Sequence record: NC_052653.1
From: Escherichia phage vB_vPM_PD06
Reading direction: 5' to 3' (one strand)
DNA length: 64,000 bases
The notes under the pieces were generated by a model that did not search any database, was not told the origin of the DNA, and saw only the letters and a list, made by a program, of their open reading frames with translations. Below, one piece after another: positions 14,818 to 52,805 of the stretch. Position 1 is the stretch's first letter. Each line of letters opens with the position of its first letter. Position numbers and translations under genes: made by a program.

Positions 14818-14891
14818 CTACTACTCCTCTTATTAAATCTGGCATTAATGCAAGAAAACCCGCCGAAGCGGGTTTTTATTTGCTGGCTTAC

Positions 14892-16019: not shown

Positions 16020-16030
16020 TTTAACCCCTT

Positions 16031-16468: not shown

Positions 16469-16482
16469 TCTTTATTCCTCAC

Positions 16483-16656: not shown

Positions 16657-16676
16657 ACCTTTCTCCCGTCTGTATT

Positions 16677-23616: not shown

Positions 23617-23617
23617 A

Positions 23618-28686: not shown

Positions 28687-28716
28687 AAGCCAGCTTAATG
28701 CTGGCTTTTATTTTCC
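28687..28716 (+). terminator. Intrinsic terminator
   Basis: AAGCCAGC-TTAAT-GCTGGCTT then TTATTTTCC. Confidence 0.55.
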
Positions 28717-28727
28717 ACGGAGGATTA

Positions 28728-32714: not shown

Positions 32715-32870
32715 ATGCTTACAGATGATGAATATAAAGCTATCCAGGAAAAACTAACGGAGCTTGAAACTCTTGCTGCAAATCTTAAAGATCAATCACA
32801 TGCTGGAAAGTTACTACGTCAAGAGATTAATAAAATTAAGCAGATGATATTCTTTTGGACGGAGGATTAA
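32715..32870 (+). CDS. Small hypothetical protein (51 aa; not in ORF track)
   Basis: ATG after AAAGGGGAAGAAA; MLTDDEYKAIQEKLTELETLAANLKDQ... Confidence 0.4.
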   Translation: MLTDDEYKAIQEKLTELETLAANLKDQSHAGKLLRQEINKIKQMIFFWTED

Positions 32871-32872
32871 AA

Positions 32873-35088: not shown

Positions 35089-35097
35089 GGAGAAAGT

Positions 35098-35304
35098 ATG
35101 GCAGGTGTTTTAGCAGTATTAGGTTGTTTTATTGTTGTATTCTTGATTGTGTTAATCCCTAGTTGGCTACTGCTTTTAGCATACAACTATATGATTGACA
35201 TTATCGGTTTAGACTGGCATCATGTTCCTGTAACGTTTTGGAGTGTAGTCTGTGTGACGTTCATTCTTGCGGTACTTCGTGGTATCTTTCAATCTAACAA
35301 ATAA
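35098..35304 (+). CDS. Small membrane protein (68 aa)
   Basis: AAGGAG RBS; two hydrophobic helices. Confidence 0.6.
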   Translation: MAGVLAVLGCFIVVFLIVLIPSWLLLLAYNYMIDIIGLDWHHVPVTFWSVVCVTFILAVLRGIFQSNK

Positions 35305-35318
35305 GAGAGGATCTTTAT

Positions 35319-35567
35319 ATGCGTAAAGTAAATGTTGAAGTGCTTGAAAAATTTAAAAACACTCGTGATTGTACTATTGGTAAGGTTTATGAGGCTATTC
35401 TCCTTGAAGATGGAGATATTGTTCCTGCCCCGTATCACGCCTTTAATGGTCAGGTTAGCAAAGTGGAAGGTGGTCTTGCTGTTTGCTTTATTGATGATGT
35501 AGGTGATGCTGTAGCTTTCCCTATCATTAACAAAGAAGATAAACTTAAAATTACAGAACTGAACTAG
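35319..35567 (+). CDS. Hypothetical protein (82 aa)
   Basis: Six-frame ORF. Confidence 0.6.
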   Translation: MRKVNVEVLEKFKNTRDCTIGKVYEAILLEDGDIVPAPYHAFNGQVSKVEGGLAVCFIDDVGDAVAFPIINKEDKLKITELN

Positions 35568-35644
35568 TTGACTTTCTTTAAAAACAGTTTATAGTATACG
35601 ACATATAGCGGAGGATTGTCCTCCGCATTAAAGAGGAGAAAAGA

Positions 35645-36622
35645 ATGCAACTGGGTTTCCCAATTATTGATGTGGTTGTTTTAGTGGGTATTTTAGTCTT
35701 GTCGATTTGTATTGATTTCTTCGGACACAGAGAAAACAAAGAAATCTCATTTAAATCTGCAATTGGCTGGTCAATTTTCTGGATTGGGGTATCATTAGCC
35801 TACTATGGTTTTGTATACTTCCAACACGGTGCTGATTTCGCGAGCTTGTTCTTGAGTGGGTATGTGTTGGAGAAATCTCTTTCTGTAGATAACTTAGTAG
35901 TATTTGTGGCAGTATTCGCAAGTTTTGGTATTAAAAGCACACACTTGCAACACAAGATTCTACTTTGGGGTATTGCAGGTGCGATTGTCTTCCGAGGTGT
36001 GTTTGTAGCAGTAGGCACTTACTTGTTGAGTTTGGGCTGGTATGTTAATATCTTCTTCGGTGCTGTCATCCTTTTCTGTGCAGCTAAAATGGTATTCGCT
36101 GGAGATAATGACGCAGAAGTTGATTACTCTAAACACTGGGCTACTCGCATTGTTCGTAAGCTGTTCCCTGTATCTGATCAGATGGATGGTGAGAAGTTCT
36201 TCACAATCAAAAATGGTGTTCGTGTAGCAACTCCTGCATTGGTTTGTGTGTTTGTAATGGAAATGGTTGACGTAATCTTTGCAGTAGACTCTGTTCCAGC
36301 AGTAATTGCAGTGACACAAGAACCTCTGCTTGTATTTTCTTCAATGCTGTGTGCAATTTTAGGTCTACGTGCTCTGTTCTTTGTCCTTAGTGTTGCACTG
36401 AAATATTTGGTTCATCTGGAGAAAGCAGTTATCGTAGTCCTGGTATTTGTGGGTGTAAAACTGATGTATCACCCGTTTGCAGAAACTCTGCACGCAAAAG
36501 TGAGTTTCCTGCCAGCACACATTGATCCGACGATCAGTATGTATATTGTGTTAGGTACTCTGGGGCTGGGTGTTATTGCAAGTTTAATCTTCCCTGAAAA
36601 AGAAGACCAGGCTGTTGCTTAA
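35645..36622 (+). CDS. TerC-family integral membrane protein
   Basis: Duplicated TerC motifs EKSLSVDNLVVF and VDVIFAVDSVPAVIAV; multiple TM helices. Confidence 0.75.
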   Translation: MQLGFPIIDVVVLVGILVLSICIDFFGHRENKEISFKSAIGWSIFWIGVSLAYYGFVYFQHGADFASLFLSGYVLEKSLSVDNLVVFVAVFASFGIKSTHLQHKILLWGIAGAIVFRGVFVAVGTYLLSLGWYVNIFFGAVILFCAAKMVFAGDNDAEVDYSKHWATRIVRKLFPVSDQMDGEKFFTIKNGVRVATPALVCVFVMEMVDVIFAVDSVPAVIAVTQEPLLVFSSMLCAILGLRALFFVLSVALKYLVHLEKAVIVVLVFVGVKLMYHPFAETLHAKVSFLPAHIDPTISMYIVLGTLGLGVIASLIFPEKEDQAVA

Positions 36623-36628
36623 TTCATT

Positions 36629-36650
36629 AAGCCCCTTCGGGGGCTTTGTT
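36629..36650 (+). terminator. Intrinsic terminator (UUCG loop)
   Basis: AAGCCCC-TTCG-GGGGCTT then TGTT. Confidence 0.55.
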
Positions 36651-36661
36651 GAGGTGATCTG

Positions 36662-36868
36662 ATGGTGGTTTTACGTGTTCTTTGGATTCTGTTTGAAAAT
36701 ATTTGTTTTGCTTTAGGGTTATTTTGTTTGATTTTTATCTTGACAACATACATTGATAACCATACAATTACTATCAACAGGAACGGAGAACAGATGTATT
36801 GTTTCTCTAGGGATTTTAAAAATTGTGTCGAGACTTTAAATGAGAGGGTTACAAATGAAAAACATTAA
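36662..36868 (+). CDS. Small membrane protein (68 aa)
   Basis: GAGGTG RBS; hydrophobic N-terminus. Confidence 0.5.
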   Translation: MVVLRVLWILFENICFALGLFCLIFILTTYIDNHTITINRNGEQMYCFSRDFKNCVETLNERVTNEKH

Positions 36869-37445
36869 ATCTTTTATTGTTGCAGTTGTTTTAGGTAGTG
36901 CATTGCTGGTAGGTTGTGATGATTCTGAAAATGTACAAAACCAACGTTACCAACAAACACCAAATCAGATGGTAGATGAACAATATGTAAATCAACCTGC
37001 ACCTCAAGTTGTTCAAGCAGCACCTGCACAACCTTCAACAGTTGTTGTGCAAGGAGGCGGTAGTGGTTCTTCTGGTGTAGGTGAATTTGCTACAGGTATG
37101 CTTCTTGGTCATATGTTGAGTGGTAATAGTGGCGGTGGTGGTTATAGAGATGGCGGTAGCAATACAACAATTATTAATAACAACGCTGCTCCTACAACTA
37201 ACAGTAAATCATATACAACACAAAAGCATAGTTTTTATGATAAACAAGGGAATACATATACAACAACTAAACAAAACACAATTAAGCAGCAAAGTGTACA
37301 AACGTATTCACGCCCATCAACAACAAAAGTGAATAGTGATTACTCTGCTCGTAAGTCTTACTCAAGCCCTATTAGCTCTTATAGTAAGTCTTCGAAAAGT
37401 TATTCTTCGTCGAAACGTAGTTTTAGTAGCTCACGTCGTCGTTAA
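36855..37445 (+). CDS. Lipoprotein, Gly/Ser-rich (196 aa)
   Basis: MKNIKSFIVAVVLGSALLVGC with lipobox LVGC. Confidence 0.6.
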   Translation: MKNIKSFIVAVVLGSALLVGCDDSENVQNQRYQQTPNQMVDEQYVNQPAPQVVQAAPAQPSTVVVQGGGSGSSGVGEFATGMLLGHMLSGNSGGGGYRDGGSNTTIINNNAAPTTNSKSYTTQKHSFYDKQGNTYTTTKQNTIKQQSVQTYSRPSTTKVNSDYSARKSYSSPISSYSKSSKSYSSSKRSFSSSRRR

Positions 37446-37480
37446 TAATTTAATACAGATTAAATAAGAAGGAGAAACAG

Positions 37481-38332
37481 ATGAAACTAGAAGTTGGTAA
37501 AGTGTATCGCCTGGAAGGTTGGATCTTTAATCAAGAAATTCTTGAGAAGAATAAAGATGGTTTTGAGTTTGTTGGTACTACCAAAGAAAGTATGCACGAT
37601 GACGAATACTGTAAATTCGTTGGTAAAAATACAGGTCAAGAACAATTTTGCTTTAAAAGCGCAATCGGTGATTATGCTTCTGTAATGCCAACGCCAGAAA
37701 AAACTTCGAAACAATATACTGTCTTTGGTGTAAAACTTGAAGAGCTTGTAGAACACCCACGTTTTGAAGAGTTTAAGGTTGCTGCAATGTGCAAGCATTC
37801 TGAAATTAAGATACATAATTTGTTTGATTTAGAAGATCGGTTTGATATCTTTATGTATGATCGCAGGGGAAAGCATTTTGATGCAACGACTTCAAAATTT
37901 GCTGCAACAGAGGATATTAAAATCCTTGATGTTGATACCTTTCTTGAGAGTGTATCGTTTGTATTCATTCCTAAATACAAAAAACGTAGTGATCATAAAC
38001 GTGTGAAAGGAACTCCTCGTAAAAAACGTACTGTAAACAAAGCAACTTTGCACTTCACTTCTGGTGATAAATATACTCTCAAAGGGTTTGAAAGTGTTTT
38101 GTATGATGCGGGAACGGGTAATATCAAGTTTATCATTAAGGCAACCTACAAAGGTACGGTATTGCACGAAGAGGCTGTTACACTACCTGTATTCGATATC
38201 TCTCGTGTTGAGGTACGGGGTGTTAAAGAGTCCTTCGATCTGGATTTCTTAACCACTAATGCTACTGGTTATGTTAACCTGGAAGCAGATGGAGCATTTA
38301 TTACTACAAATTATTTAGATATGTTTGTTTAA
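37481..38332 (+). CDS. Hypothetical protein (283 aa)
   Basis: AAGGAG RBS. Confidence 0.65.
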   Translation: MKLEVGKVYRLEGWIFNQEILEKNKDGFEFVGTTKESMHDDEYCKFVGKNTGQEQFCFKSAIGDYASVMPTPEKTSKQYTVFGVKLEELVEHPRFEEFKVAAMCKHSEIKIHNLFDLEDRFDIFMYDRRGKHFDATTSKFAATEDIKILDVDTFLESVSFVFIPKYKKRSDHKRVKGTPRKKRTVNKATLHFTSGDKYTLKGFESVLYDAGTGNIKFIIKATYKGTVLHEEAVTLPVFDISRVEVRGVKESFDLDFLTTNATGYVNLEADGAFITTNYLDMFV

Positions 38333-38400
38333 TACTTAATTTGTGTTATGATGGTGGTACAGAGGTATCACCATCTACTAAAGAATATGGAGGAAATTGA

Positions 38401-39504
38401 ATGTCCAGTCCTTTTATCAGTGCCGTAAAAAGCAAACCGTCTGAAACGAGTGTATTCACGGCAACAACAGAAAAAAGTAAGTCTTTGTTTGCTCCAAGTG
38501 CTATGGATGCAAGCCCTGTATATGCCCCTGCTGTTGCACGACCTGTACAAATGCTGCCTCCAATGTCTCGTGAAGAGATTGAACAGGTTGGTGCTGATGC
38601 AGGACTTACTCTTCGTAACCTTAATGCGGAAGTGCTTAAACACCAGCGTTCATCTCAGGGAGATGAAATGAGTGAGCGTTTAACCGCACTTATTAAGCAA
38701 GCAAAGCAACTTGATCCTAATTCTATTAAACAATCTAAAGGTTTAGGTAAGCTAGTTAAGAAAGTATTAGGTATGAAAGAAGATTTGTTTGGAGAATTTG
38801 ACACCATCAATAATCGTATTGAAGGTTTGGTAAAGACACTCCAAACAGACTTGAAAAAAGAAGAAGATTCTTTACGATATCTGCAACGTTTAGAAGAGGC
38901 TATTGCAAAATATGCTCTTAGCTTAAACAGGGATATAGAGCTTCTAACAGCTACTTATGAAAAAGAAGAAGTTCACCTTAATACACTACCTGAAAATGAA
39001 GTAGAAGAGCGTCAACGTACTCGTGATACTATGGATCTGCTTGAAATTCGTATTGCAGACCTGAAAGCCTTGCGTTTACTGTGTGTTCAGATGGGGCCAC
39101 GTGTACAAAGTATGCAGAAAGTATCTGCAAGTTTGATGCGATCAGCCCGTAATATTGTGAATAATGTTATTCCTGCTTACTCTGCAAACTTTTCTATGTA
39201 TATTGAAAGTCTACGCCAGAAGAAAGCAGCCGATACACAGAACAATGTACTGAATGAATTTAATGCTGCTATTGCAATGGGTAGTGATCTGGCTGCACAA
39301 AACCAAATTGAAGCTACACAACTTGCTAATCGTCAAGTATTGGATATTGAGACATTACGTCGCGATCAAGAAAACTTAGTTAAAATGTTGGAAGAAACTA
39401 ATCGGATCAACACTGAAGCCCGTGCTGCTCGTATTGATTACATTCAAGAAGTGCAATCTCTTGAAGATGGTATGATTCAAACTGTTAAACGTGGTCTACT
39501 TTAA
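38401..39504 (+). CDS. TelA-like (toxic anion resistance family) coiled-coil protein
   Basis: About 367 aa, extended coiled-coil, size and pattern resemble TelA/KlaA; GGAGG RBS. Confidence 0.45.
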   Translation: MSSPFISAVKSKPSETSVFTATTEKSKSLFAPSAMDASPVYAPAVARPVQMLPPMSREEIEQVGADAGLTLRNLNAEVLKHQRSSQGDEMSERLTALIKQAKQLDPNSIKQSKGLGKLVKKVLGMKEDLFGEFDTINNRIEGLVKTLQTDLKKEEDSLRYLQRLEEAIAKYALSLNRDIELLTATYEKEEVHLNTLPENEVEERQRTRDTMDLLEIRIADLKALRLLCVQMGPRVQSMQKVSASLMRSARNIVNNVIPAYSANFSMYIESLRQKKAADTQNNVLNEFNAAIAMGSDLAAQNQIEATQLANRQVLDIETLRRDQENLVKMLEETNRINTEARAARIDYIQEVQSLEDGMIQTVKRGLL

Positions 39505-39517
39505 GGAGAAATATATT

Positions 39518-39724
39518 ATGAATATTAAAATTTACAAACTGTCTGGTTCTATGATCGCTGTCCAGTACGACAATGAAGATCGTTATGTTCTCCTCCAGGA
39601 TGCTTGGTTAGATGATCCTAATGTATTTACTGTCCTGCGAGAACTACGTTCTGTCTATACCTATTCTTCTAAAGATGGTTTTGATAGTTCAACGATGGAT
39701 TTGGTAAAAGAGGAGAATGTGTAA
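39518..39724 (+). CDS. Hypothetical protein (68 aa)
   Basis: AAGGAG RBS. Confidence 0.55.
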   Translation: MNIKIYKLSGSMIAVQYDNEDRYVLLQDAWLDDPNVFTVLRELRSVYTYSSKDGFDSSTMDLVKEENV

Positions 39725-39927
39725 TGAATAAAGATATTCACTTAACTCGTGAAGAATTACAAACCATTATGGAAGATGCTTTCATTGATGGTTGGAAACA
39801 ATGTCAAGAGTCAAATTGGTATGATGCCGAAAACTTTTTGTATTATCATATGACTGCACCTGTAGACGAGCCAACACATTCTGAAACAACTTTGGCCTTA
39901 ATTGATCTTAAGGCTGGTGTATTTTAG
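39724..39927 (+). CDS. Hypothetical protein (67 aa)
   Basis: Start overlaps upstream stop. Confidence 0.55.
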   Translation: MNKDIHLTREELQTIMEDAFIDGWKQCQESNWYDAENFLYYHMTAPVDEPTHSETTLALIDLKAGVF

Positions 39928-40011
39928 TTGTAACTATCTCTTTAAACGAGTTACAAAAGATCACCAGAGAGGCTTTCTATTTAGGCTGGAGGGCAGGTAA
40001 AGGAGAAGACA

Positions 40012-40281
40012 GTGCTTAAATTTAATATCAAAGACGATAAATCAGATGAACCTAAATGTTTTGGAGAACTTGACGCAGGTGATACATTCGTATATTATGT
40101 TGCGTATCAAGATTCTGGTTTAGATACGTTCAGAAACTTAGTGTTTATTAAAGTTAATACAAACCAAGCAATGTGTCTGAACGGTTCACAAAGAGGTCAA
40201 CTTAGCTGTATTTCATATGATACAGAAATGGTAGAAGTGGATTTAGAAGTTACTAACATTACACTCAGAAAGGAGAAATAA
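40012..40281 (+). CDS. Hypothetical protein (89 aa; GTG start)
   Basis: GTG after AAAGGAGAAGACA. Confidence 0.55.
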   Translation: MLKFNIKDDKSDEPKCFGELDAGDTFVYYVAYQDSGLDTFRNLVFIKVNTNQAMCLNGSQRGQLSCISYDTEMVEVDLEVTNITLRKEK

Positions 40282-40282
40282 T

Positions 40283-41077
40283 ATGTCCAATAAAATCAGT
40301 CTTAAAAAACGTCAAGAAACTCTTACTGTATCTCTGCGTAAGAAAAAGATTAACGATGTTGTTCTTCGTGTCGGTAGCGCCTTAGATATTTCGGGTAGTA
40401 TGTGTGAGCTGTATCGTGATGGCACTGTTAGTGATTTTGTAGGTAAACTGCTGCCGTTTGGTATGAAGTTTGATGACAATGCACAGATTGACATGTGGGC
40501 TTTCAATAGTTCTTCTTTTGAACTGCCTCCTGCAACGGCTGATGTGTATGATGATTATGTCGGCTCTTGCATGTCTAATGTTTGCATCAACGGTGGTACT
40601 GCTTATGCTCCAGTAATGCAAGAGATCTATGATACATACTTCGGTAGTGTACCTATGAAAAATATTACACGCGAAGTCGTTGAGTATGAAGAAGTCCCGG
40701 CTAAGGGTTTCCTTGCTAAACTAACTGGTAAAAAAGAACTTGTAGAAGTAACACGTACTATTGTAGAACAGGTTGTAGATACTGATGCACAAGTTGATCG
40801 TACTCCTGCAATGATTTTCTTCCAAACTGACGGGGAAAACATGGATACTTCAGCAGTACGTAGCTTACTGAACAAACACCGCAATACGCCTGTTTACTGG
40901 TTTATGGTTGGTGTAGGTAATGCAAACTTTAAATTCCTGAAAGACTTGGCAAAAGAGTACGATAATGTTGATTTTATCGGTATTGCAGATTTGTCCTTGT
41001 CTGATGAAGAACTTTACGATAAACTGTTATCCGAAGAGTTTGGTGAGTGGGTTAAAAAATTCGGAGCAAAAGCGTAA
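40283..41077 (+). CDS. vWA-domain protein (TerY-like) with TerD-like N-terminal strand
   Basis: MIDAS DISGSM, GGTAY, FFQTDGEN; N-terminus ISLKKRQETLTVSLRK. Confidence 0.6.
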   Translation: MSNKISLKKRQETLTVSLRKKKINDVVLRVGSALDISGSMCELYRDGTVSDFVGKLLPFGMKFDDNAQIDMWAFNSSSFELPPATADVYDDYVGSCMSNVCINGGTAYAPVMQEIYDTYFGSVPMKNITREVVEYEEVPAKGFLAKLTGKKELVEVTRTIVEQVVDTDAQVDRTPAMIFFQTDGENMDTSAVRSLLNKHRNTPVYWFMVGVGNANFKFLKDLAKEYDNVDFIGIADLSLSDEELYDKLLSEEFGEWVKKFGAKA

Positions 41078-41084
41078 AAAACGC

Positions 41085-41112
41085 TTGACTTTGTAGAAAA
41101 GATTAGTAAAAT
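41085..41112 (+). promoter_or_regulatory. Sigma70-type promoter
   Basis: TTGACT, 16-bp spacer, TAAAAT. Confidence 0.5.
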
Positions 41113-41149
41113 AGACAACGTAAATTAACAACAAAGGAGATAATAAATT

Positions 41150-41746
41150 ATGACTCAGAAAATTTCCCTGAAAAAAGGTTCTAGCGAAAAAGTTTCTCTG
41201 AAAAAGATCGCACCAGCACTGAAACGCATTCGTCTGGAATTCTCTTGGAAATCTAACGAAAAACTGGATCTGGATGTTAGTGCTCTGATTTGCCGACACA
41301 ATGCATCTGGTCTGCCGGAACTGTTGTCTCCTCGTCACCTGGTGTGCTACGCGCAGAAATTTGATCCTGAACGTTCTACTTTTGCAGGTGAAGATGTTCG
41401 TGATGGTGTAGGACAGATGGAGCAGATTGATGTTACACTGGATAATATCTCTGCTGAAGCACAGGAAATTGCATTCGTAATTACTATTGATGACGAAACG
41501 GGTAAGAAACGCCTTGGTCACGCTACCGAAGGTTTCCTTAAAATCTTCGATGATGAACGTAATGTTGAACTGCTGGACTTTGACTTCTTGGCTCCAGAAC
41601 TTGCAGGTAACACCATTTGCCACGTTGCCTCCCTGGTGCGAGAAGATAGCGAATGGAAACTGAAAGCGTATGGTGTAGGTAAAGCTGGGCTTGACATTTA
41701 CGATGTAGTTAAAGCGTTTGGCGCTGGCGACGATTGGTTCGAGTAA
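41150..41746 (+). CDS. TerD-domain protein
   Basis: MTQKISLKKGSSEKVSLKK...DLDVSAL...FVITIDD...WKLKAYGVG matches TerD layout; own promoter and terminator. Confidence 0.75.
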   Translation: MTQKISLKKGSSEKVSLKKIAPALKRIRLEFSWKSNEKLDLDVSALICRHNASGLPELLSPRHLVCYAQKFDPERSTFAGEDVRDGVGQMEQIDVTLDNISAEAQEIAFVITIDDETGKKRLGHATEGFLKIFDDERNVELLDFDFLAPELAGNTICHVASLVREDSEWKLKAYGVGKAGLDIYDVVKAFGAGDDWFE

Positions 41747-43304: not shown

Positions 43305-43534
43305 TGGCTGATGTTATTGAAGTTAACTTTAAAACAAAAAAGAAAGTTGATAAGTATACAATCTTAAAAAATATTTGCGTTGTGTGCTTCAATTCTGTAA
43401 TATATGACTCACGTAAGGGCGAAGATGAAAATGAACCTTACATCCAGATTTCTAAAGGTAAAGGGCAGTGTATCTGCAAAAACTGTGCTGTAGCAATTAA
43501 GGAGGTTGTAGATGAAAACCATTGGGATCAATGA
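43304..43534 (+). CDS. Small zinc-binding protein (76 aa)
   Basis: ATG overlapping upstream stop; CVVCFNS...CICKNC. Confidence 0.5.
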   Translation: MADVIEVNFKTKKKVDKYTILKNICVVCFNSVIYDSRKGEDENEPYIQISKGKGQCICKNCAVAIKEVVDENHWDQ

Positions 43535-43706
43535 TACTGGTGAAGTTGTAAAATCTTGGGATGATCTTAGTGGTATCCCTACAGATAAACTGATTAAACT
43601 GCGTGATGTTTGTCGTGATCATCTTAATGAAACATATAAAGAGTATATGGAAGCACGAGATCACAGTTTAGCTATCCAAATGGAACTCGCAAAACGTAAT
43701 CAATAG
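43512..43706 (+). CDS. Hypothetical protein (64 aa)
   Basis: GGAGG RBS. Confidence 0.55.
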   Translation: MKTIGINDTGEVVKSWDDLSGIPTDKLIKLRDVCRDHLNETYKEYMEARDHSLAIQMELAKRNQ

Positions 43707-43763
43707 GTAAAACCATTTGGACTTTTTAGTCTAAAAATGCTAAAGTAATAATACGGAGGGAGT

Positions 43764-44327
43764 ATGATATTTCACATAACTCCCTATCTTTCTGGAGATA
43801 TTGGAAAAGGTATCAATGACACAATAAGTGTCTTACCAGAAGATAGTTGGATTTGCCTAAGAGACATTGATACAATGTTTCTTCTTCCAGAACAACCTGC
43901 TTGGTTGGAATCAATAGTCCGTTCAAATCCTGATTTTGATGTTCTTGGTGCATCTTGTAATAGATTGGGATCAACATATCAATTATTTAATAATGAAAGA
44001 AGTGAAGATCCAAATATATTACACCACATTGAGATTGCAAAAAGAGCACATCTAGAATGGGGAAACTCAATAGAGGAAGTACCTACAGATGCTATCTTAG
44101 CAGGATTCTTTCTTCTCTTTCGTAAGAGTCTGTGGAATGAAATCCCTTTTGAGGAAAGATCAATACAGTTTGATATAATTTTCTCTAAAGCATTACACGC
44201 TAACAATAAAAGGCTAGGTTTACTACGTGGGTTATATTTATTTCACACATACCGTTTAGGTAATGATGATCCTAGAAAAGCTGTTTCACACCTTTTACAT
44301 TGTCAAGACATGAATAAAATTATTTAA
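43764..44327 (+). CDS. Hypothetical protein, possibly glycosyltransferase-like (187 aa)
   Basis: GGAGGGAG RBS; first gene of GT cluster. Confidence 0.4.
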   Translation: MIFHITPYLSGDIGKGINDTISVLPEDSWICLRDIDTMFLLPEQPAWLESIVRSNPDFDVLGASCNRLGSTYQLFNNERSEDPNILHHIEIAKRAHLEWGNSIEEVPTDAILAGFFLLFRKSLWNEIPFEERSIQFDIIFSKALHANNKRLGLLRGLYLFHTYRLGNDDPRKAVSHLLHCQDMNKII

Positions 44328-44336
44328 GGAGTTATT

Positions 44337-45023
44337 TTGGAAAATACAAAAATTGGTGTTGGTGTTATTACTGTAGGTAAGCGTCCTCTTAAAGATTATC
44401 TTGTGACTGATCCTAATGCTACTTTTGTTGTGCAGTATGATCGGGAACGAAAAGGTGTTGCATATGCCCGTAATGAACTGATGAAAAAGTTTTATGATGA
44501 AGGGTATGATTACTGGTTTATTTTTGATGATGATTGCTATCCGGTTGTGCCAGGTTGGGAAACATATTTTGTAAAACAGGCTAAGGAAAATGGTTGGGAT
44601 TTCTTTGGTATGCCTGAATATTTTAAAGATAAAGTAAAAGGTATTGAGGGTGAAGTGGTTATTTGGGAACTAGGTATGTGTCAGTTTGGTATGTATTCCC
44701 GTGCAGTTATTGAGAAAGCTGGCTATTTCCGCTCATACACCCACGGTTATGGATATGAAGATGCAGAGTGGATTCAGCGCGTTCCACTGGCAGGTTTGAA
44801 CCGAGGTATTCAGGGCGTACCATGTCCTATTCGAATTATGGCGTTTATCCATCCTGACGATGTGTTTGGAGATAATCCTTTACCTTTTGCGAATCTGTCA
44901 AAAGAAGAGAAAGAACAGGGGATTGGTGTAAACTGGGAACAATATAAACAATCACTGGAGGATCTTCGCAATGGTAAAACTTTTATCTCTTATGAGGAGG
45001 CTCAAAAATATGGTAAGTGCTAA
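44337..45023 (+). CDS. Glycosyltransferase, GT-A fold (GT2-like)
   Basis: TTG start after AAGGAG; GVAYARNELMK and FIFDDDCYP. Confidence 0.55.
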   Translation: MENTKIGVGVITVGKRPLKDYLVTDPNATFVVQYDRERKGVAYARNELMKKFYDEGYDYWFIFDDDCYPVVPGWETYFVKQAKENGWDFFGMPEYFKDKVKGIEGEVVIWELGMCQFGMYSRAVIEKAGYFRSYTHGYGYEDAEWIQRVPLAGLNRGIQGVPCPIRIMAFIHPDDVFGDNPLPFANLSKEEKEQGIGVNWEQYKQSLEDLRNGKTFISYEEAQKYGKC

Positions 45024-45984
45024 TACTCCTGTACTTAAGTGTGATAATAAGTTAGGCAGTGGTTGTGATTACCATCGTATTGTAATGCCGTTTGCGGGAA
45101 ATACGTTCAAACCTAAGAAAGACGTTTTAGTTTTTAATAGAGTGTACTCTCGTGGATCAGACGAGGTTAAACGCCTGAAGGCACAAGGTGTTAAGATTAT
45201 TGTTGACTTAGATGACTTTTATTCACTTAATCCTGAACATTATATGGCTGGCGTATTTACTAATCACTCAAAGACTATTGTAGAGATGGTTAAGTTAGCA
45301 GATGTTGTTACAGTAACAACAGAATACCTGGCTTACAAAATTCGTCATTTAAACCGTAATGTTGTCGTTATTAGAAACGCACTACCTTACGACGAAGGTC
45401 AATTTACTTTGACAAAAGACCGTTATTCTGACACGCCTATTATTTGGGCTGGAGGAGCAAGCCATGAACCTGATTTATCTCTTGTAGCTAATACATTTGA
45501 TGATACACTATTGACAATTGCAGGGTATGAAGTGTATCCTTCTGCACCTGTTGGAAATAATAGTCAGTATCTAACTACTGCGGAGTGGGTTAAAATAAAA
45601 CGTAAAATTCCAAATGCACAGTATAAACCAGCTATTAAAAATTTAGGTGAGTATATGTCTGTGTATGACGGTCACAGTATTGCAATTGCTCCTCTGGTAG
45701 ATAATGACTTCAACAACTGTAAAAGCAATTTGAAGATTTTGGAAGCAGGTGCAAAGGGTCTTCCTATTATCTGTTCTCCTGTGCTGCCGTACTTCAATCC
45801 GGTAGATGCAAAGGCTGTTATTTATGCAGACTCTAAAGCATCTTGGCATTATGAAGTTGTCAAGCTAATGAGGAACCCTAGATACACAGAAGATCGTGGT
45901 ATGATGCTTGCAGAACACGTTCGTCTTAATTATAATCTTGCAGATGCCAATGAACTGCGTCGTCAAGTTATTGAAAGTCTTTAA
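45010..45984 (+). CDS. Glycosyltransferase, GT-B fold, paralog 1
   Basis: C-terminal NLKILEAGAKGLPIICSP; GAGGAGG RBS. Confidence 0.5.
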   Translation: MVSANTPVLKCDNKLGSGCDYHRIVMPFAGNTFKPKKDVLVFNRVYSRGSDEVKRLKAQGVKIIVDLDDFYSLNPEHYMAGVFTNHSKTIVEMVKLADVVTVTTEYLAYKIRHLNRNVVVIRNALPYDEGQFTLTKDRYSDTPIIWAGGASHEPDLSLVANTFDDTLLTIAGYEVYPSAPVGNNSQYLTTAEWVKIKRKIPNAQYKPAIKNLGEYMSVYDGHSIAIAPLVDNDFNNCKSNLKILEAGAKGLPIICSPVLPYFNPVDAKAVIYADSKASWHYEVVKLMRNPRYTEDRGMMLAEHVRLNYNLADANELRRQVIESL

Positions 45985-45995
45985 CAAGGAGCCAT

Positions 45996-46940
45996 ATGCC
46001 TAATATTATTCTTGACACACGTGGACATGAGAGGTATAGTGTATGTGATTTTCATAGAATCATTTTGCCATATAAACGCAAACTGACCATTAATCCTAAG
46101 CATAATATTTTTGTGTTCAATGGAGTACCAACTCGTGGAAAGCCAGGTTTCCTGGCTCTTAAACAACTTGGGTTTAAATTGGTAATGGATCTGGATGATT
46201 CTTTAATTATTCCTGAAGGGCATATGCTTGAAGGATTATTTGAAAATCAAATCCGAGATGACCTAAAATGGTTCCTTGAAAGAAGCGATCTTGTAACTAC
46301 AACAACTCCAGCATTAAAGGTTGAATTAAGCCAATACAATGATAATGTACATATTGTGCCTAACGGACTACCTTTTGATGAAGGACAGTTTGTTCTTACG
46401 AAAGATCGTTATTCTAAAAGTCCACTGGTTTGGGCGGGAAGTGAAACACATAAACATGATTTAGCAATTCTCCCTGCTTTTGGTAAAGAGTTAACTTTAT
46501 GTGGATTTCGTAGAGATCACGAAGAGTTAAGTAGTGCTCAATGGTTGCAAATTAAAGAAGAGATTCAACCAGATTGTGTTTATGAAGGTATTCGTCCTTA
46601 TGAGTGTTATATGGAAGCATACGATGGTCATCAAATCTCCATAGCTCCATTAGTAAATAATCATTTTAATAATGCCAAAAGTAATTTAAAAATTCTTGAA
46701 GCTGGTGCTAAAGGTTTGCCACTCGTTTGTTCACCAAGAGAGAACTATTATACTGAAGAGTTTAAAGATCTAATCTTCTTTGCTGATTCAGTTAAAGAGT
46801 GGAAAGATATTGTAGAATACTTAATCGAATCTCCTGATGTTTGTATTGAGAAAGGATTGGCTCTTGCTAAGTATGTAAGAGATAACTACAATATTGATGA
46901 TTTAAATGAAACCCGCAGACTGCTTATCGAGGATTTATAA
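45996..46940 (+). CDS. Glycosyltransferase, GT-B fold, paralog 2
   Basis: Tandem paralog; NLKILEAGAKGLPLVCSP. Confidence 0.5.
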   Translation: MPNIILDTRGHERYSVCDFHRIILPYKRKLTINPKHNIFVFNGVPTRGKPGFLALKQLGFKLVMDLDDSLIIPEGHMLEGLFENQIRDDLKWFLERSDLVTTTTPALKVELSQYNDNVHIVPNGLPFDEGQFVLTKDRYSKSPLVWAGSETHKHDLAILPAFGKELTLCGFRRDHEELSSAQWLQIKEEIQPDCVYEGIRPYECYMEAYDGHQISIAPLVNNHFNNAKSNLKILEAGAKGLPLVCSPRENYYTEEFKDLIFFADSVKEWKDIVEYLIESPDVCIEKGLALAKYVRDNYNIDDLNETRRLLIEDL

Positions 46941-47209
46941 TGAACACTTTTGATTTTGAGTATAAACAAGATAATAAAGAACCTATTATTGTTGAAGTAG
47001 ATTACTATTATGAAGAACCTAATCCTTTCTCACGAGAAAGTGATTGGGATTATTATGGTGGCCTTATTGTTGATGGTATTAGGTTCTATTCTGGTACAAA
47101 AGAACTTTTTGATATAGATATTTCCCCATCGGAAATTGTTTACCAATTTAAGAAACATATGGAAGATTTGGAAATGCAATATATTATGGAGACAAACGAA
47201 TCATTTTAG
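46940..47209 (+). CDS. Hypothetical protein (89 aa)
   Basis: ATG overlapping upstream stop. Confidence 0.55.
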   Translation: MNTFDFEYKQDNKEPIIVEVDYYYEEPNPFSRESDWDYYGGLIVDGIRFYSGTKELFDIDISPSEIVYQFKKHMEDLEMQYIMETNESF

Positions 47210-47221
47210 TAGGAGAATCAT

Positions 47222-48994
47222 GTGTCTTATGTTGTAAATAAATATGGGTATAACATTGACCTAAGTCAAGAAGGACATACTGGGTGTCCTCGTTGTATGA
47301 AAGGAGGGCGTGATCGATCACAAAACAATTTGATGGTATACGGCTTAGATGCCGATGAAGACCATCGAGGCGCACATTGTTTTTCTTGTGGCTTTACTAT
47401 CCCTGATCAAAAATGGTTAAATGCACACGGCGAAGAAATTGAAGAGGAGGATATCTTGGGTAGTGAGTTTAATCCAGAAGTACATGATAAACTAAAAGCC
47501 AGCACTGGAACTAATCCAAAAGGTTATCGCGGTATTCGTGAAGATATCTCTAAACCTTTCGGTGTACGCTATATGTACGATGAAGCTACTGGCGAAGTAA
47601 TTTCAACACTATACCCTACAACTAAAGATTACAATATTGCTGGGTATAAACAACGTATTGATCCAAAAGATTTTTCGCATCCTATCGGTGAAACAGGAAA
47701 GGATTGTGATCTCTTTGGGGAGTTTAAATATCGTAACCACAGCGGTACTATTCTAATCGTTGGTGGTGAACACGATATGCTGGCTGCAACACAGATGCTA
47801 AAAGATTATAACAAGGGCGGTAAATATCCTGTTCCTGCTGTAGTATCTGGTACTTGTGGCGAAACATCTCTGCATAAGCAGCTTCAACATCGTTATAAAT
47901 TCTTAGATCAATTTAAAAAGATTGTTCTGTGTATGGATAATGATGAAGCTGGACGTGCAGCAGTTGAGAAATGTGTTAAAATCTTACCACGTAATAAAGT
48001 TTACGTGATGGAACTAACAGATGTTAAAGATCCTAACCAGGCACTAGTAGAAGGAAAAATTGATCACTTTCTTGATCGCTTTTTCAAAGCTAAACTGTAC
48101 ACACCTGCTGGTGTTTATGCTTCTAACGTACTGTATGAAGCAGCCTTGGAATGTCTGGAAGCTAAAATGATTACTCTTCCTCCATTCATGCGTGTTGCTT
48201 CTAATATGTTAGGTGGAGGCTTGGTAGAAGAAGAAATTACTGTTATACTTGCAAAAACAAGTATTGGTAAGACACTGTTGGTTAACGAGATTACGAAACA
48301 CATTATTCTTGCACACCCAGAACATACTCTTGGTATTTTATCTTTGGAGGCAACGTATAAGAAGTATTCTCGTAACTTACTGTCTTCATTCTTGCACATC
48401 CCTCTTCACCGTAAAACAAAAGAAGAGAAGGAAAAGATTTTAAAAGATAATGAAGAAAAGATTCGTGATTTTTACGAACGAGAAGATGGAACACCACGTT
48501 TCTATGTTTGTGATGATCGTGGAGCTAACGTAGATGTGATTAAAGAGAAGGTTCTGGAAATGATTATTTATTTCGGAGTAACCATTCTTGTTATCGACCC
48601 TTATTCTGATTTGCTTTCTGGTATGGACGTGTCACAACAAGAGGAACTTGCGACGTGGCTCAAACGCATTATGAAAGAGTACGCAATTACCATTGTTGTA
48701 ATTTCACACGTTAAAAAGTCTTCTAACAATAGTAATGAACATATTGTAGAAGATGATGCAATGGGTAGTAGCTTCCTTGCTAAAGGTGCTGGTATCACAA
48801 TTGCGCTGGAGCGTGATAAACAAGCTGAAGATCCTATGGAACGTAACCGCACATATTGCTACATTCTAAAGAACCGTGAGTTCTCAGAGACTGGTGCAGC
48901 AGGTAGTTTCTTCTATGAGATTAAAACAGCTACACTTCACGATTACGATCAATACACAAGTAACCCAGAGAATATTCCTGATGGTTCTTATTAA
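47222..48994 (+). CDS. Bifunctional primase-helicase (T7 gp4-like)
   Basis: Zinc ribbon CPRCMKGG...CFSCGF; helicase Walker A ILAKTSIGKT; GTG start after TAGGAGAA. Confidence 0.75.
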   Translation: MSYVVNKYGYNIDLSQEGHTGCPRCMKGGRDRSQNNLMVYGLDADEDHRGAHCFSCGFTIPDQKWLNAHGEEIEEEDILGSEFNPEVHDKLKASTGTNPKGYRGIREDISKPFGVRYMYDEATGEVISTLYPTTKDYNIAGYKQRIDPKDFSHPIGETGKDCDLFGEFKYRNHSGTILIVGGEHDMLAATQMLKDYNKGGKYPVPAVVSGTCGETSLHKQLQHRYKFLDQFKKIVLCMDNDEAGRAAVEKCVKILPRNKVYVMELTDVKDPNQALVEGKIDHFLDRFFKAKLYTPAGVYASNVLYEAALECLEAKMITLPPFMRVASNMLGGGLVEEEITVILAKTSIGKTLLVNEITKHIILAHPEHTLGILSLEATYKKYSRNLLSSFLHIPLHRKTKEEKEKILKDNEEKIRDFYEREDGTPRFYVCDDRGANVDVIKEKVLEMIIYFGVTILVIDPYSDLLSGMDVSQQEELATWLKRIMKEYAITIVVISHVKKSSNNSNEHIVEDDAMGSSFLAKGAGITIALERDKQAEDPMERNRTYCYILKNREFSETGAAGSFFYEIKTATLHDYDQYTSNPENIPDGSY

Positions 48995-49490: not shown

Positions 49491-52400
49491 ATGGGAGCTT
49501 TTACTTTCGACATTGAAAGTAACAACTTGCTTAATGACGAAAGTGTAGATTACTTGGCAAGTCCATATCGTTTAAAAGATAGTTTTGCAATGCACTGTAT
49601 TGTGTGCGAAAGTCATGATACTGGAGAGATTATTGCTTTCCATGATGGTGATAAATATCTTTTCGATGGTCGTCCGTATATTGAGACTGACGGAAAGTAT
49701 GAATACCGACTGGAGGAATATGAGCATTTAGAATATACCCATTTCCCTCTTAAAGATTTTCCTGATTTTGTAAATGGAACAGGTAAATTTAAAGGTAATT
49801 CAAACTATAAAATTACCAAAGTAGTTGGACACAACATCATTAACTTCGACTTACTGGCAATTAAATTATTTTTTAAACTCAACTACAGTATTAAGTACAA
49901 TACTTGGGGTAATAGTAACATTGAAATTTGTGATACTATGATCTTAAGTAAGACACTAAACCCTGATCGCTTCGGTGGTCATAGTCTGGCAGAGTTATCT
50001 AAGAAAGCTGGAGGGGATGTTAAAATTGATTTTAGAAAAAACATTCCTGAAACTGAAAGATTTAGAACATTTGCAGCAGATATGCTGTATTACTGTATTT
50101 ACGATAACAAAGCTAACACCGCAGTGTTCCGTTATTTGATGGAAGAGTGGGGTGATTATAACAAGTGGTCTGAACCATTTAACTTAGAACAACGTGTAGC
50201 TGATATTATTACACGTCAAGAGCACCGTGGCTTTGCTTTCAATATGAAACAAGCAGAAGATAATATTCGTGATCTGGATGCTCGAATGGAAGCATGTCGT
50301 TTAGAGGCAGAACCTGTGCTACCTCCTAAACCTGCTACTAAAGGTTATTTGAAATCATTCATTCCACCTAAACTACAGTTTAAAAAGAATGGTGAGCCTT
50401 CAAGTAACATGATAAAGTTTGCAGAGAAACATTCTGGTGAACTTGTACAAAAAGAAGATGGTTGGTGGTTATTTGCATTAGGTAAAGAGTTTAAACTACC
50501 TATTCCAGCAGAAGAACCTATTTGTGATCCTACAGTACCTGCTACTTTAGACGACACTACACATATTAAAAATTGGTTAGTTGGTTTAGGTTGGAGTCCA
50601 TCTGAATATAAAGATAAAGATATCACTCTTAAATCTGGCACTAAGATTAAGAAAGATGAAGCACAAATGGAGAAAGCTATTCGTGACTATGTTGATCAAA
50701 CATTAGCATCTAACTTCTGCCAGGATAGATGTGATCATCTGGAGTGCACACCAGAAACTTTGGAATGGAAACTAAGAGATCGTATTGCTAAAGCTAAAGG
50801 TCGTGGTGTTAAAGTGCTTACTAACCCTTCCTTTACAAAAGGGCAAGAGAAGGATATTTGTCCTAACTTGGAAGCACTGGGTGAAAAGTTCCCTTATGCT
50901 ACGCAGATTGTGCAGTATCTTACGTATAAACATCGTAGAAACTCTATTCTAGGTGGTGGTGCTGATTGGGAAGAGGATGAAGAGGATTACGATAAAGGTT
51001 ATCTGGCGGCAGTAAGAGCTGATGGTCGTATACCAACTCCTGCTGCAACGTGTGATGCAGCTACGTCTCGTATGAAACATAGGTTAGTAGCAAATATCCC
51101 ACGTGTAACATCTCTGTACGGATATGAAATGCGTAACTTATTTGGTGTAGAAGTTCCAAAATACTTCCAAATTGGTTATGACTTTGATTCTCTTGAGGCA
51201 AAAATAGAATCACACTACTGTGTACCTATGGATGCACAAGCACTAACCCGTAAAGGTTGGGTTGGTTATCACGATCTACAAGAAGGGGATGAAATCTTAG
51301 GATATAACCCAGAAACAGGACTTAAAGAATGGACTAAAGTAAAAGGTAAGGTCTTCTATAAAAATAGTAAGACGTTTGAGATTAAAGGAAAATCCCATAC
51401 TTATCGTGCAACAGCAGATCACCGTTGGTATGTTAATACTCGTAGTACAGGGAATACTTATGTGCCTAAAGTCAGAACAACTGCCGAGCTTTGCACAGGA
51501 GATAACATTATTTGTAATGCTCCATTTAACATGGAACAAGATCAAGTAAATAGTTTAACTTCTGTTCAACAAGGTAAATGGGATGTTCCGTGGGTAGAAC
51601 GTGTAGTTAATATGTCTCATGCCGAGCGTGTGGCTTTCTTGGAAGGTTTTTTGATTGCGGATGGTTACTGGCACAAACATAAACAAAAACCTGTTTGGCG
51701 CTGGGCGCAGAACCCAGGAGAACTTTTTGAAGCAGCCTTAACTGCCTCATACCTGGTTCATGGGGGTAATATTTCTGTAGCCTTCAATACGAAAGACCAG
51801 AAAGTAAAAGTGGCAACGTTGGCTAACCGCTCTCACATCCCTGTTCAAAGTCTGACTATTGAAGAATGGGGTGTAGAAGATGTTTGGTGTCCACAAACAG
51901 AACTCGGTACATGGGTTATGCGTCAGAAAGACTGCATCACGATTACAGGGAATTGTTGGCGGTACGAGCAGGAACCACACGAATATTGTAATGCTCTATT
52001 GTTGGAAAAACCTAATGATGTTCATACAATGATGGCTCGACGTATTTCTGACACTATTGGTCGTAAGTTTGAACGAAGCCCTGCTAAATCTGTTAAGTAT
52101 GGTATTACTTATGGTGCTCAAGCTGCAAAAGTAGCAAAAACTATAGGTAGTGATATGTATACAGGACAGCTTGTATACGATGCTTTCTGGGAAGCTGCAA
52201 AACCTCTTGCGCTTCTTAAAGAACGTCTGCATGACTTTTGGGTTAAAACAGGTAAGAAATACATTCTTGGTATTGATGGTAGGAAAGTACCTACACGATC
52301 TGCACACGCAATACTTAACTCTCTGTTCCAGAGTGGTGGTGTTATTTGTGCAAAAAGAGCAATGGTTATCTACGATGATCTTATCGAAGAAGAAGGATTA

Positions 52401-52805
52401 GCTGTTGACTTTTTTGTTGATGACTGGAAAAATAAGTCATTCGTTCAACAAATGATTGCATATCACGATGAAGCACAGCTTGAAGTAACTCGTGATCTGG
52501 TGCATTTTAAATGGTTCTCTAAAGAATCTTTAGGTTGGACTCAAGTTGATGATCCAGAAGAACAAAAGAAAATTGATAAAGAATGTTTGGATAAAGTTAA
52601 TGCCTGGAAAGAAGAGGAAGAGAAACGTACTGGCAAGATTTGGGCTAACGTACATGAATCTCCGAAAGGTGGTTGGTTTACAGCCTACAGTCGTGCTGGA
52701 GAATTAGCATCTATCGCTGTTAATAAAGCTGGTGAGTATTACAATCTTAATGTACCTCTAACTGCTGGTTACGATGTTGGTAGTTCATGGTCAACTTGTC
52801 ACTGA
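49491..52805 (+). CDS. Family A DNA polymerase, intein-containing precursor
   Basis: Exo I TFDIES; motif A GYDFDSLEAKIESHY; motif B RSPAKSVKYGITYGAQ; motif C IAYHDEAQ. Confidence 0.85.
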   Translation: MGAFTFDIESNNLLNDESVDYLASPYRLKDSFAMHCIVCESHDTGEIIAFHDGDKYLFDGRPYIETDGKYEYRLEEYEHLEYTHFPLKDFPDFVNGTGKFKGNSNYKITKVVGHNIINFDLLAIKLFFKLNYSIKYNTWGNSNIEICDTMILSKTLNPDRFGGHSLAELSKKAGGDVKIDFRKNIPETERFRTFAADMLYYCIYDNKANTAVFRYLMEEWGDYNKWSEPFNLEQRVADIITRQEHRGFAFNMKQAEDNIRDLDARMEACRLEAEPVLPPKPATKGYLKSFIPPKLQFKKNGEPSSNMIKFAEKHSGELVQKEDGWWLFALGKEFKLPIPAEEPICDPTVPATLDDTTHIKNWLVGLGWSPSEYKDKDITLKSGTKIKKDEAQMEKAIRDYVDQTLASNFCQDRCDHLECTPETLEWKLRDRIAKAKGRGVKVLTNPSFTKGQEKDICPNLEALGEKFPYATQIVQYLTYKHRRNSILGGGADWEEDEEDYDKGYLAAVRADGRIPTPAATCDAATSRMKHRLVANIPRVTSLYGYEMRNLFGVEVPKYFQIGYDFDSLEAKIESHYCVPMDAQALTRKGWVGYHDLQEGDEILGYNPETGLKEWTKVKGKVFYKNSKTFEIKGKSHTYRATADHRWYVNTRSTGNTYVPKVRTTAELCTGDNIICNAPFNMEQDQVNSLTSVQQGKWDVPWVERVVNMSHAERVAFLEGFLIADGYWHKHKQKPVWRWAQNPGELFEAALTASYLVHGGNISVAFNTKDQKVKVATLANRSHIPVQSLTIEEWGVEDVWCPQTELGTWVMRQKDCITITGNCWRYEQEPHEYCNALLLEKPNDVHTMMARRISDTIGRKFERSPAKSVKYGITYGAQAAKVAKTIGSDMYTGQLVYDAFWEAAKPLALLKERLHDFWVKTGKKYILGIDGRKVPTRSAHAILNSLFQSGGVICAKRAMVIYDDLIEEEGLAVDFFVDDWKNKSFVQQMIAYHDEAQLEVTRDLVHFKWFSKESLGWTQVDDPEEQKKIDKECLDKVNAWKEEEEKRTGKIWANVHESPKGGWFTAYSRAGELASIAVNKAGEYYNLNVPLTAGYDVGSSWSTCH
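51219..51953 (+). mobile_element. Intein (about 245 aa) with LAGLIDADG-like motif, after Pol motif A
   Basis: Begins CVPMDAQALTRKGW; TxxH block TADH; LEGFLIADGYW; ends ITITGN + Cys (non-canonical GN; C-terminal boundary approximate). Confidence 0.65.

Follow-up and report, generated by a model that had tools for sequence, protein, structure and literature searches.

A conserved four-gene glycosyltransferase cluster in phi92-like coliphages points to a probable rhamnose-linked pathway with a non-DNA acceptor

Why does a coliphage carry four glycosyltransferase genes just upstream of its replication genes, and what do their products glycosylate? The question is raised by Escherichia phage vB_vPM_PD06 (sequence record NC_052653.1), of which we analyzed a stretch of 64,000 nucleotides, referred to here as the window, in which four adjacent open reading frames (ORFs), called P1 to P4 below, occupy positions 43764-46940 of the + strand. 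An original prediction for this locus had proposed that such genes usually serve either the anti-restriction glycosylation of modified DNA bases or the modification of host surface glycans, and had correctly left the substrate open. A rhamnose-linked, non-DNA glycosylation pathway emerges as the best-supported reading, with an acceptor that is probably something other than bulk DNA. Among the candidate acceptors, analogy would make the proteins of the virion the most likely one, an assignment that we put forward tentatively.

All four predicted ORFs are present, and their products are, to judge from their sequences, almost certainly active glycosyltransferases (GTs). The first, P1 (43764-44327, 187 amino acids, aa), had been described merely as GT-like and proved to be a genuine soluble, compact GT-A enzyme with a DxD motif at D34/D36. 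The second, P2 (44337-45023, 228 aa), is a soluble GT-A protein of the GT2-like kind, as had been claimed, with the motif series R16...D64-D65-D66...E141-D142. Structure models give both proteins a single Rossmann-like alpha/beta/alpha nucleotide-sugar-binding fold, and on these models both are GT-A fold glycosyltransferases. Family alignments are consistent with this assignment, with D34 and D36 of the DxD motif invariant in the P1 family, together with H161 and H176, and both D64-D65-D66 and E141-D142 invariant in the P2 family. The top structural neighbours of P1 and P2 are polysaccharide GTs (GlfT2, K4CP, TarP and RmlT), and a Foldseek comparison of P2 with BFVD returned only generic or unnamed viral GT2/GT25 matches. 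Comparison at the level of sequence was less informative: P1 had no Pfam match, none of the four proteins had an NCBIfam match, P1 and P2 had no meaningful sequence match in the PDB, and the Pfam matches of P2, P3 and P4 were weak.

The two remaining proteins, P3 (44971-45984, 337 aa) and P4 (45996-46940, 314 aa), are predicted GT-B enzymes of the GT4-like, PF13524/PF13692 type, and the proposal that they are tandem paralogs holds, with 41% identity between them (E 3e-82), a common C-terminal motif, SNLKILEAGAKGLP(I/L)(I/V)CSP, and joint membership in phrog_7162. P4 matches PF13524 (Glyco_trans_1_2) with 26.8 bits, above the cutoff of 25, in addition to weak N-terminal Glyco_transf_4 matches, and P3 gives weak matches to the GT1-type Pfam models that fall below their cutoffs. 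A profile of the GT-B family matched two GT4 structures weakly in the PDB, MshA (E 0.003) and TreT (E 0.01). The assignment of P3 and P4 to the GT-B fold is thus putative. In the alignment of the family the invariant residues of P4 include D67-D68, H152, K228, S229, K232 and E235; the second glutamate of the EX7E signature (E235) is therefore retained, and an invariant K228/S229 pair occupies the position of the first. An exhaustive profile search recovered 4027 cluster representatives of this GT-B family at E<=1e-30, mostly viral or metagenomic, the larger of which are multi-GT proteins with TPR and methyltransferase fusions, and no functional label was gained from the family. None of the four proteins contains a membrane-like segment, no hydrophobic 19-mer exceeding 1.21 on the Kyte-Doolittle scale, and P1, P2 and P4 are acidic (isoelectric points of 5.1-5.6).

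The start of one gene may need revision. P1 begins with ATG preceded by GGAGGGAG and P2 with TTG preceded by AAGGAG, and the annotated start of P3 at 44971 creates an overlap of 53 nucleotides with P2. An internal ATG at 45010 has a better-placed and stronger AGGAGG and would yield a product of 324 aa. Given this ribosome-binding site and the match to phrog_7162 (E 3e-149), which begins at residue 20 of P3, the start at 45010 appears at least as likely as that at 44971. Scans for promoters and terminators around the cluster gave signals at background level, with none separating the genes.

The cluster is widely shared among relatives. Along its entire length, the region 43500-47300 has 98-99% identity with about 50 complete Justusliebigvirus genomes, the genus of phi92-like myophages in the Stephanstirmvirinae, including pEC-M2929-1AR.1, PHB05, EmilieFrey/Bas61, PATM, Eryne and alia; in PATM all four genes recur, the region being 98.3% identical at the nucleotide level, and the window corresponds by blastn to about 26.6-88.4 kb of Eryne in reverse orientation. 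A tblastn search of 50,697 phage records places P1 to P4 in about 52 genomes of Justusliebigvirus and about 77 of the Phapecoctavirus type, with amino acid identities between the genera of 66-76% (64-78% for P1); P2 and the GT-B pair are found in the same phages as P1, and both genera carry two GT-B copies per genome. Several records of relatives already label all four genes 'glycosyltransferase', and that of EmilieFrey lists two as 'putative glycosyltransferase' and two as 'putative disaccharide synthase'. The four-GT cluster is thus real, conserved and already annotated in relatives.

A more distant Klebsiella phage, KP2025, shows how far the set can be reduced. At the syntenic site (TelA, vWA, TerD ... 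primase) it has a P1 homolog and one GT-B, its P2 homolog (profile hidden Markov model E 1e-75) is unlinked and lies about 58 kb away, and of the rhamnose pathway it has rmlC and rmlD without rmlA or rmlB. Because KP2025 keeps just these genes, the conserved core across relatives consists of P1, P2, one GT-B and RmlC/RmlD. Two GenBank records probably bear wrong host labels: MG065689.1, named 'Campylobacter phage A110a', has a GT-B gene whose product is 98.4% identical at the amino acid level to P4, and MG065650.1, named 'Campylobacter phage B15', has a Phapecoctavirus-type GT-B copy with 75.7% amino acid identity.

The presence of RmlC and RmlD in this core directs attention to the sugar donor. 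A pathway for deoxythymidine diphosphate (dTDP)-rhamnose is encoded by these phages (PMC7552041; PMC8594841), and its genes lie outside the window, in the nucleotide-metabolism region of relatives (Eryne table; PMC7552041). The original prediction, in weighing DNA against surface glycans, had missed both these genes elsewhere in the genome and the association of distant relatives with head modules that is described below; its two candidate targets are nevertheless taken up in what follows. Eryne encodes RmlD, RmlC and an RmlB fused to a fragment of RmlA, and rmlC and the GTs are distributed alike among phages. In Eryne the ORF for dTDP-glucose 4,6-dehydratase (15716-17026, - strand) runs on into a C-terminal nucleotidyltransferase fragment (PF00483, residues 306-388), and this sequence suggests that rmlA is truncated or fused there. 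All Enterobacterales make dTDP-4-keto-6-deoxyglucose for the enterobacterial common antigen (ECA) through RffH/RffG, and since the host would supply this intermediate, we infer that RmlC and RmlD alone would suffice to give the phage dTDP-L-rhamnose in any host. The co-conservation of RmlC/RmlD with the GT core makes it likely that one or more of the GTs use dTDP-L-rhamnose as donor, although the sequences themselves show no readable sign of donor or acceptor specificity; core and supply genes together suggest a rhamnose-containing glycan.

Does this glycan go onto DNA? The idea that the rhamnose and GT genes of these phages hypermodify their DNA is repeated in the literature and was also a speculation of Olsen et al. 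2020; phenotypes and gene content argue against it. Phage DNA glycosylation, where it is known, depends on a hydroxylated base, which is the product of a ThyA-type hydroxymethylase or of a TET/JBP dioxygenase acting on 5-methylcytosine (5mC) (10.1101/2023.12.21.572611). The statement that the window holds no base-hydroxymethylating enzyme stands, as no Pfam match to one was found among the larger ORFs between 22 and 56 kb. A search for dCMP/dUMP hydroxymethylase-like genes beyond the window, carried out on Eryne, recovered no ThyA-type enzyme, the sole thymidylate synthase of that complete genome being ThyX-like (PF02511, 36.9 bits). Twenty further Eryne proteins, mostly hypothetical, gave no match to TET_JBP or Thymidylat_synt in a scan that left aside small ORFs and the coding sequence (CDS) 99783-100382. 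Relatives do carry a C5-cytosine methyltransferase (PF00145), and no TET/JBP was found among its scanned neighbours in Eryne. This gene is one of several noted outside the window, at Eryne 137076-139774, 102114-102926 and 104258-105247, which comprise prs with Nampt, Sir2 and the C5-cytosine DNA methylase.

The enzymes themselves give a similar answer. None of P1, P2 and P4 falls into a family of proven DNA glycosyltransferases (T4 AGT/BGT or TAGT). P2 reaches 23.3 bits (E 7e-5) against TAGT (PF20691), below the cutoff of 27.5, over about 60 residues around the DxD, and it has a sub-threshold match to phrog_842, annotated as beta-glucosyl-HMC-alpha-glucosyltransferase. Neither P1, P2 nor P4 had a tblastn match in T-even phages at E<=1e-3, whereas P2 matches 341 mycobacteriophages in the same type of search, and the Stephanstirmvirinae are missing from a published listing of TAGT-like GT-A enzymes across viral genomes, in the part of it that was accessible. 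The acidity of P1, P2 and P4 likewise speaks for an acceptor other than DNA.

The published behaviour of near-identical phages points the same way, since resistance to restriction-modification (RM) systems coupled with attack by modification-dependent nucleases is not what they display. Bas60-62 are 'exceptionally susceptible' to RM systems (PMC8594841); BREX restricts PATM 10^7-fold, and PATM is absent from the set of phages on which the modification-dependent BrxU acts (PMC8565348); and ARMADA II and Zorya II restrict Bas61/62 and leave hypermodified Straboviridae untouched (PMC13463889). Bas60-62 and PATM thus behave as phages with unmodified DNA. With no base hydroxylase found, no similarity to T-even GTs and sensitivity to RM, BREX and ARMADA systems, the proposal of anti-restriction glycosylation of modified bases is not supported, and glycosylation of bulk DNA is unlikely. 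The DNA reading, in which hydroxylated or otherwise modified bases would be the targets of the GTs, possibly at specific motifs only, nevertheless has several observations in its favour: the cluster sits in a neighbourhood of replication genes and immediately precedes the primase-helicase and DNA polymerase; the rml genes sit in the nucleotide-metabolism region; P2, beyond its two sub-threshold matches, has the R...DDD...ED motif set of TAGT/JGT enzymes (10.1101/2023.12.21.572611); and a motif-restricted modification need not protect against the RM systems tested. The C5-cytosine methyltransferase of relatives and their divergent ThyX-like protein, of unproven specificity, would offer routes to a precursor; for example, 5mC made by the phage methyltransferase could be oxidised by an unrecognised enzyme. 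The missing ThyA-type and TET/JBP enzymes in the Eryne scan, the shortness of the TAGT match and its position below the curated cutoff all count against this reading, as does the number of enzymes, four GTs being more than any known DNA glycan calls for. We regard DNA as a quite improbable acceptor.

If not DNA, then what? The genomic contexts of distant relatives provide a lead. Relatives of the P1 family occur in unrelated small phages at 25-35% identity, and most GT-B matches are unnamed metagenome proteins. Among 11 independent phage contexts of P1 and GT-B relatives, seven touch a head/packaging module and five of these lie inside one. In L007 a P1 relative stands between terL and the portal gene, accompanied by a GT2, a polysaccharide deacetylase and two Methyltransf_24 genes; in L022 one is located between terS and terL, in the company of TOD1/MUCI70 and Methyltransf_24; and in L023 one follows terL, along with a GT2. 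In Cellulophaga phage phi18:1 the C-terminal domain of gp41 is a P1 relative that adjoins a Methyltransf_24 gene, between portal/MuF and protease/major capsid protein (MCP) genes. Of the GT-B relatives, that of L015 immediately precedes terS together with a P2-like GT-A (P2 profile E 6e-21), that of L018 also lies on the upstream side of terS, alongside an acetyltransferase and a GT2, and that of L024 comes right after terL. Non-structural contexts are represented by a P1 relative in a large sugar-biosynthesis cluster beside a primase (L008) and by three GT-B relatives (L017, L019 and L025). In Burkholderia dolosa, the one context examined of two bacterial-named matches, the GT-B relative adjoins an intimin/invasin-type adhesin, a neighbourhood that suggests protein glycosylation.

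Because relatives reside in head modules and the likenesses to the mycobacteriophages Corndog, Che8 and Fruitloop point in the same direction, these contexts suggest, by analogy, that virion proteins are favoured as acceptor for the wider GT families. The pathway that we propose would run as follows. The four soluble cytoplasmic GTs would act in sequence, building a glycan of up to about four sugars; at least one step would probably use dTDP-L-rhamnose, secured by the phage RmlC and RmlD, to which this genus adds RmlB and RmlA; the glycan would be placed on a non-DNA acceptor; and one or more virion proteins would thereby receive a glycan coat, analogous to virion glycosylation in mycobacteriophages. 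The order of action, the donor and the acceptor are all matters that we infer. Of the non-DNA acceptors, virion proteins seem to us the likeliest single choice, held with less than even confidence, and the specific form in which capsid or tail proteins of phi92-like and phAPEC8-like coliphages would bear a rhamnose-containing O-glycan is possible, if doubtful. In a relative the tail sheath and portal proteins have Ser/Thr-rich C-termini, and the MCP and tube proteins are without them, a difference that is suggestive at most. A separate candidate in Eryne, the CDS0003 product annotated as 'DNA methyltransferase' in the portal-protease interval, was considered as a Corndog-like O-methyltransferase and rejected, as its Pfam match is to an XkdF-type protease domain.

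Several observations weigh against virion proteins as the acceptor. In this phage the cluster sits in the replication/nucleotide-metabolism arm beside the primase-helicase and DNA polymerase and not in the structural module, and head-module placement holds for distant relatives alone; even among these, the relatives of L008, L017, L019 and L025 have non-structural neighbours. Since insertion sites in head modules are common moron sites, the association is suggestive and does not amount to statistical proof. None of P1 to P4 is significantly similar to the experimentally implicated enzymes themselves, Che8 gp108-110 or Corndog gp36-38, and P2 matches only the Fruitloop-type variant among the mycobacteriophage clusters compared. 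We found no report of glycosylated phi92-like virions in the literature, and the 2023 abstract by Freeman reportedly notes that evidence for glycosylation outside actinobacteriophages is scant. Finally, the structural neighbours of P1 and P2 and the GT4-like GT-B enzymes fit polysaccharide or lipid-linked acceptors equally well.

This last point leads to the main rival, the remodelling of host envelope glycans. Soluble GTs at the cytoplasmic face would transfer rhamnose or other sugars to lipid-linked or core intermediates, be they lipopolysaccharide (LPS) core, ECA, O-unit, colanic acid or NGR precursors, an effect that could mask receptors, with superinfection exclusion and less progeny lost on debris as outcomes, or could trap undecaprenyl-phosphate and so weaken the envelope. 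The GT-B pair is consistent with such a role, in that it is GT4-like, its closest solved sequences are MshA/TreT-type enzymes with small or lipid-linked acceptors, one GenBank record names a GT-B paralog 'RfaG', and the larger members of the family are multi-GT proteins typical of polysaccharide synthesis. The polysaccharide GTs that head the structural comparison of the GT-A proteins fit equally. RmlC/RmlD would, we presume, divert dTDP-4-keto-6-deoxyglucose, an ECA intermediate, and LPS core and ECA/NGR glycans serve these phages as receptors (PMC8594841; PMC11990801). The proteins themselves, however, lack membrane segments, and no flippase, polymerase or Gtr-type partner is encoded nearby. 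The phage appears to be strictly lytic, and a single lytic cycle leaves limited room for envelope turnover; no gene is annotated as integrase or repressor in the gene tables of Eryne, which do list a 'DNA invertase'. The placement of small-phage relatives in head-assembly operons would also be left unexplained. We consider envelope remodelling rather unlikely, while treating it as the principal competitor to glycosylation of virion proteins.

A further rival assigns the GTs to host or defence proteins, or to small metabolites, in the manner of toxin-type GT-A enzymes or of EarP-type rhamnosylation. A host factor or an immune signalling molecule could be inactivated or redirected, or a metabolite could be modified that is linked to the neighbouring Ter and phosphoribosyltransferase (PRTase) genes. 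General precedent exists, the DxD GT-A fold being that of many protein-glycosylating toxins and the GT-B enzyme EarP using dTDP-rhamnose, and the phage enzymes are soluble, acidic and located in the early/middle gene arm. They are also syntenic with a Ter-PRTase-HAD-Macro block both here and in KP2025, and these phages have other anti-defence metabolism, such as Prs and Nampt; the ribose-phosphate pyrophosphokinase and nicotinamide phosphoribosyltransferase of relatives form an NAD salvage pair. Against this, sequence and structure searches found no specific similarity to known protein-glycosylating toxins or EarP, four GTs point to the assembly of an oligosaccharide and not to a single-sugar switch, and the Ter genes are tied to the GTs by proximity alone. 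A functional link between the Ter/PRTase block and the GTs was considered, and nothing emerged beyond conserved synteny and proximity. We judge this explanation unlikely.

The cluster belongs to the replication arm, within a long + strand block that extends from about 18 kb to 56.6 kb. Upstream, a Ter-type block is followed by a SleB-type cell wall hydrolase, by three small ORFs without assigned function and then by P1. Downstream, an 89-aa ORF (phrog_4240; 46940-47209, + strand), whose first base, 46940, is the last base of the P4 ORF, precedes the primase-helicase (Toprim + DnaB_C; 47222-48994), and DNA polymerase A, an SSB-like gene and a Dam-like methylase follow. A small CDS follows the GT-B gene of KP2025 at the same position. 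The original placement of the cluster between lysis and replication genes was accurate on the replication side and only loosely right on the other. The SleB-type hydrolase (PF07486; 42506-43015, + strand), whose N-terminus resembles a signal peptide (MSIKTFVAIALLSLTAFTFTPVVAQA), is possibly not the main endolysin, because relatives carry a second lysozyme and spanins elsewhere.

Other features of the window were recorded in passing. The Ter-type stress-response block (32855-41746, + strand) comprises a HAD hydrolase, a ComF-like PRTase, a Macro domain protein, TerC, TelA, vWA-TerF and TerD, and its synteny is kept in KP2025. DNA polymerase A (49491-52805, + strand) is 1104 aa long here and 859 aa in EmilieFrey and Eryne; the insertion at about 51221-51954 starts with Cys, contains a LAGLIDADG-like LEGFLIADGY and ends in ...TGN followed by Cys, a sequence that looks like an intein. 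The UvrD-like helicase (23579-26392, + strand) contains an intein at about 24374-25445 (PF14890 Intein_splicing and Hint matches) that is absent in Eryne. A segment at 29540-29825 (+ strand), between the ORFs 28698-29594 and 29846-30817, is missing in Eryne (blastn gap 29585-29885). On the - strand, a trio of genes at 13072-16019 may represent anti-defence or homing elements; their products are a NADAR domain protein (13072-13623), a CapR/T5orf172 protein (13624-14817) and an AAA/STAND-like ATPase (14892-16019).

The answer matters beyond this locus, as phages of Justusliebigvirus and Phapecoctavirus infect a very wide range of hosts and are candidates for use in therapy and biocontrol. The evidence redirects the question from DNA to proteins or envelope glycans, and the two outcomes would have different consequences. 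If virions are glycosylated, the immunogenicity, pharmacokinetics and stability of therapeutic preparations would be affected, and antibody shielding, virion stability and adherence to mucus would become relevant properties of therapeutic phages. We know of no rhamnose O-glycan virion system reported for phi92-like or phAPEC8-like coliphages, and, if true, phages of Gram-negative hosts could here have their first example of virion glycosylation; by extension, the many GT/Methyltransf_24 inserts in head modules of uncultured phages would look like cassettes for virion glycans. Should the function instead be to remodel host glycans, a new mechanism of superinfection exclusion or lysis support would be at work in a lytic coliphage.

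Comparison with known systems places the cluster among several precedents without equating it with any of them. With the GtrABC systems of prophage seroconversion it shares phage-encoded sugar transfer that could alter host surface glycans; unlike the membrane-embedded proteins of those temperate phages, P1 to P4 have no hydrophobic segments, and none of the four matched the Gtr Pfam families. P3 and P4 resemble GT-B enzymes of the GT4 type (MshA, WaaG-like), in that P4 passes the PF13524 threshold and the second EX7E glutamate is kept in ...KILEAGAKG..., and differ from them in having an invariant K-S pair in place of the first glutamate and invariant N-terminal DLDD and H motifs of their own. 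The DNA-modifying GTs of T-even phages and TET-associated systems (T4 alpha/beta-GT, T2/T6 TAGT and 5mYOX-linked enzymes) are likewise phage GT-A/GT-B genes near DNA metabolism, and P2 resembles TAGT in motif set and in its sub-threshold family match. Unlike in those systems, no precursor-base enzyme and no tblastn similarity were found, and the DNA of near-identical phages is restricted as if unmodified.

The closest parallels are the mycobacteriophage clusters, Che8 gp108-110, Corndog gp35-38 and Fruitloop gp99 with gp102, which likewise consist of several phage-encoded, cytoplasmic GT-A-type GTs. Che8 virions bear capsid glycans according to a passage in PMC11256854 citing Freeman et al. 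2023. By Pfam, Che8 gp108 is a GT2-Methyltransf_24 fusion. The Che8 glycans reportedly sit on the C-termini of capsid and tail tube proteins and depend on gp108-110. Unlike the mycobacteriophage clusters, the coliphage cluster has no GT25-like member and no methyltransferase, belongs to a phage of a Gram-negative host and lies in the replication arm instead of a structural or right-arm position; it has two GT-B enzymes, whereas the GTs of Che8, Corndog and Fruitloop that were scanned gave no GT-B (GT1-type) Pfam match. The N-terminal GT domain of Fruitloop gp99 is the best match of P2 in a cultured phage outside its own group (profile E 4e-22), a likeness to the GT found in glycosylation clusters of Cluster F mycobacteriophages. 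Fruitloop gp102, the partner of gp99, shares 85% identity with Che8 gp110 and 47% with Corndog gp38. In Corndog, gp35-38 comprise an O-methyltransferase and three GTs between portal and protease (PMC4351075), a layout mirrored by the distant P1 relatives, in which Methyltransf_24 and GT genes stand together within the head module.

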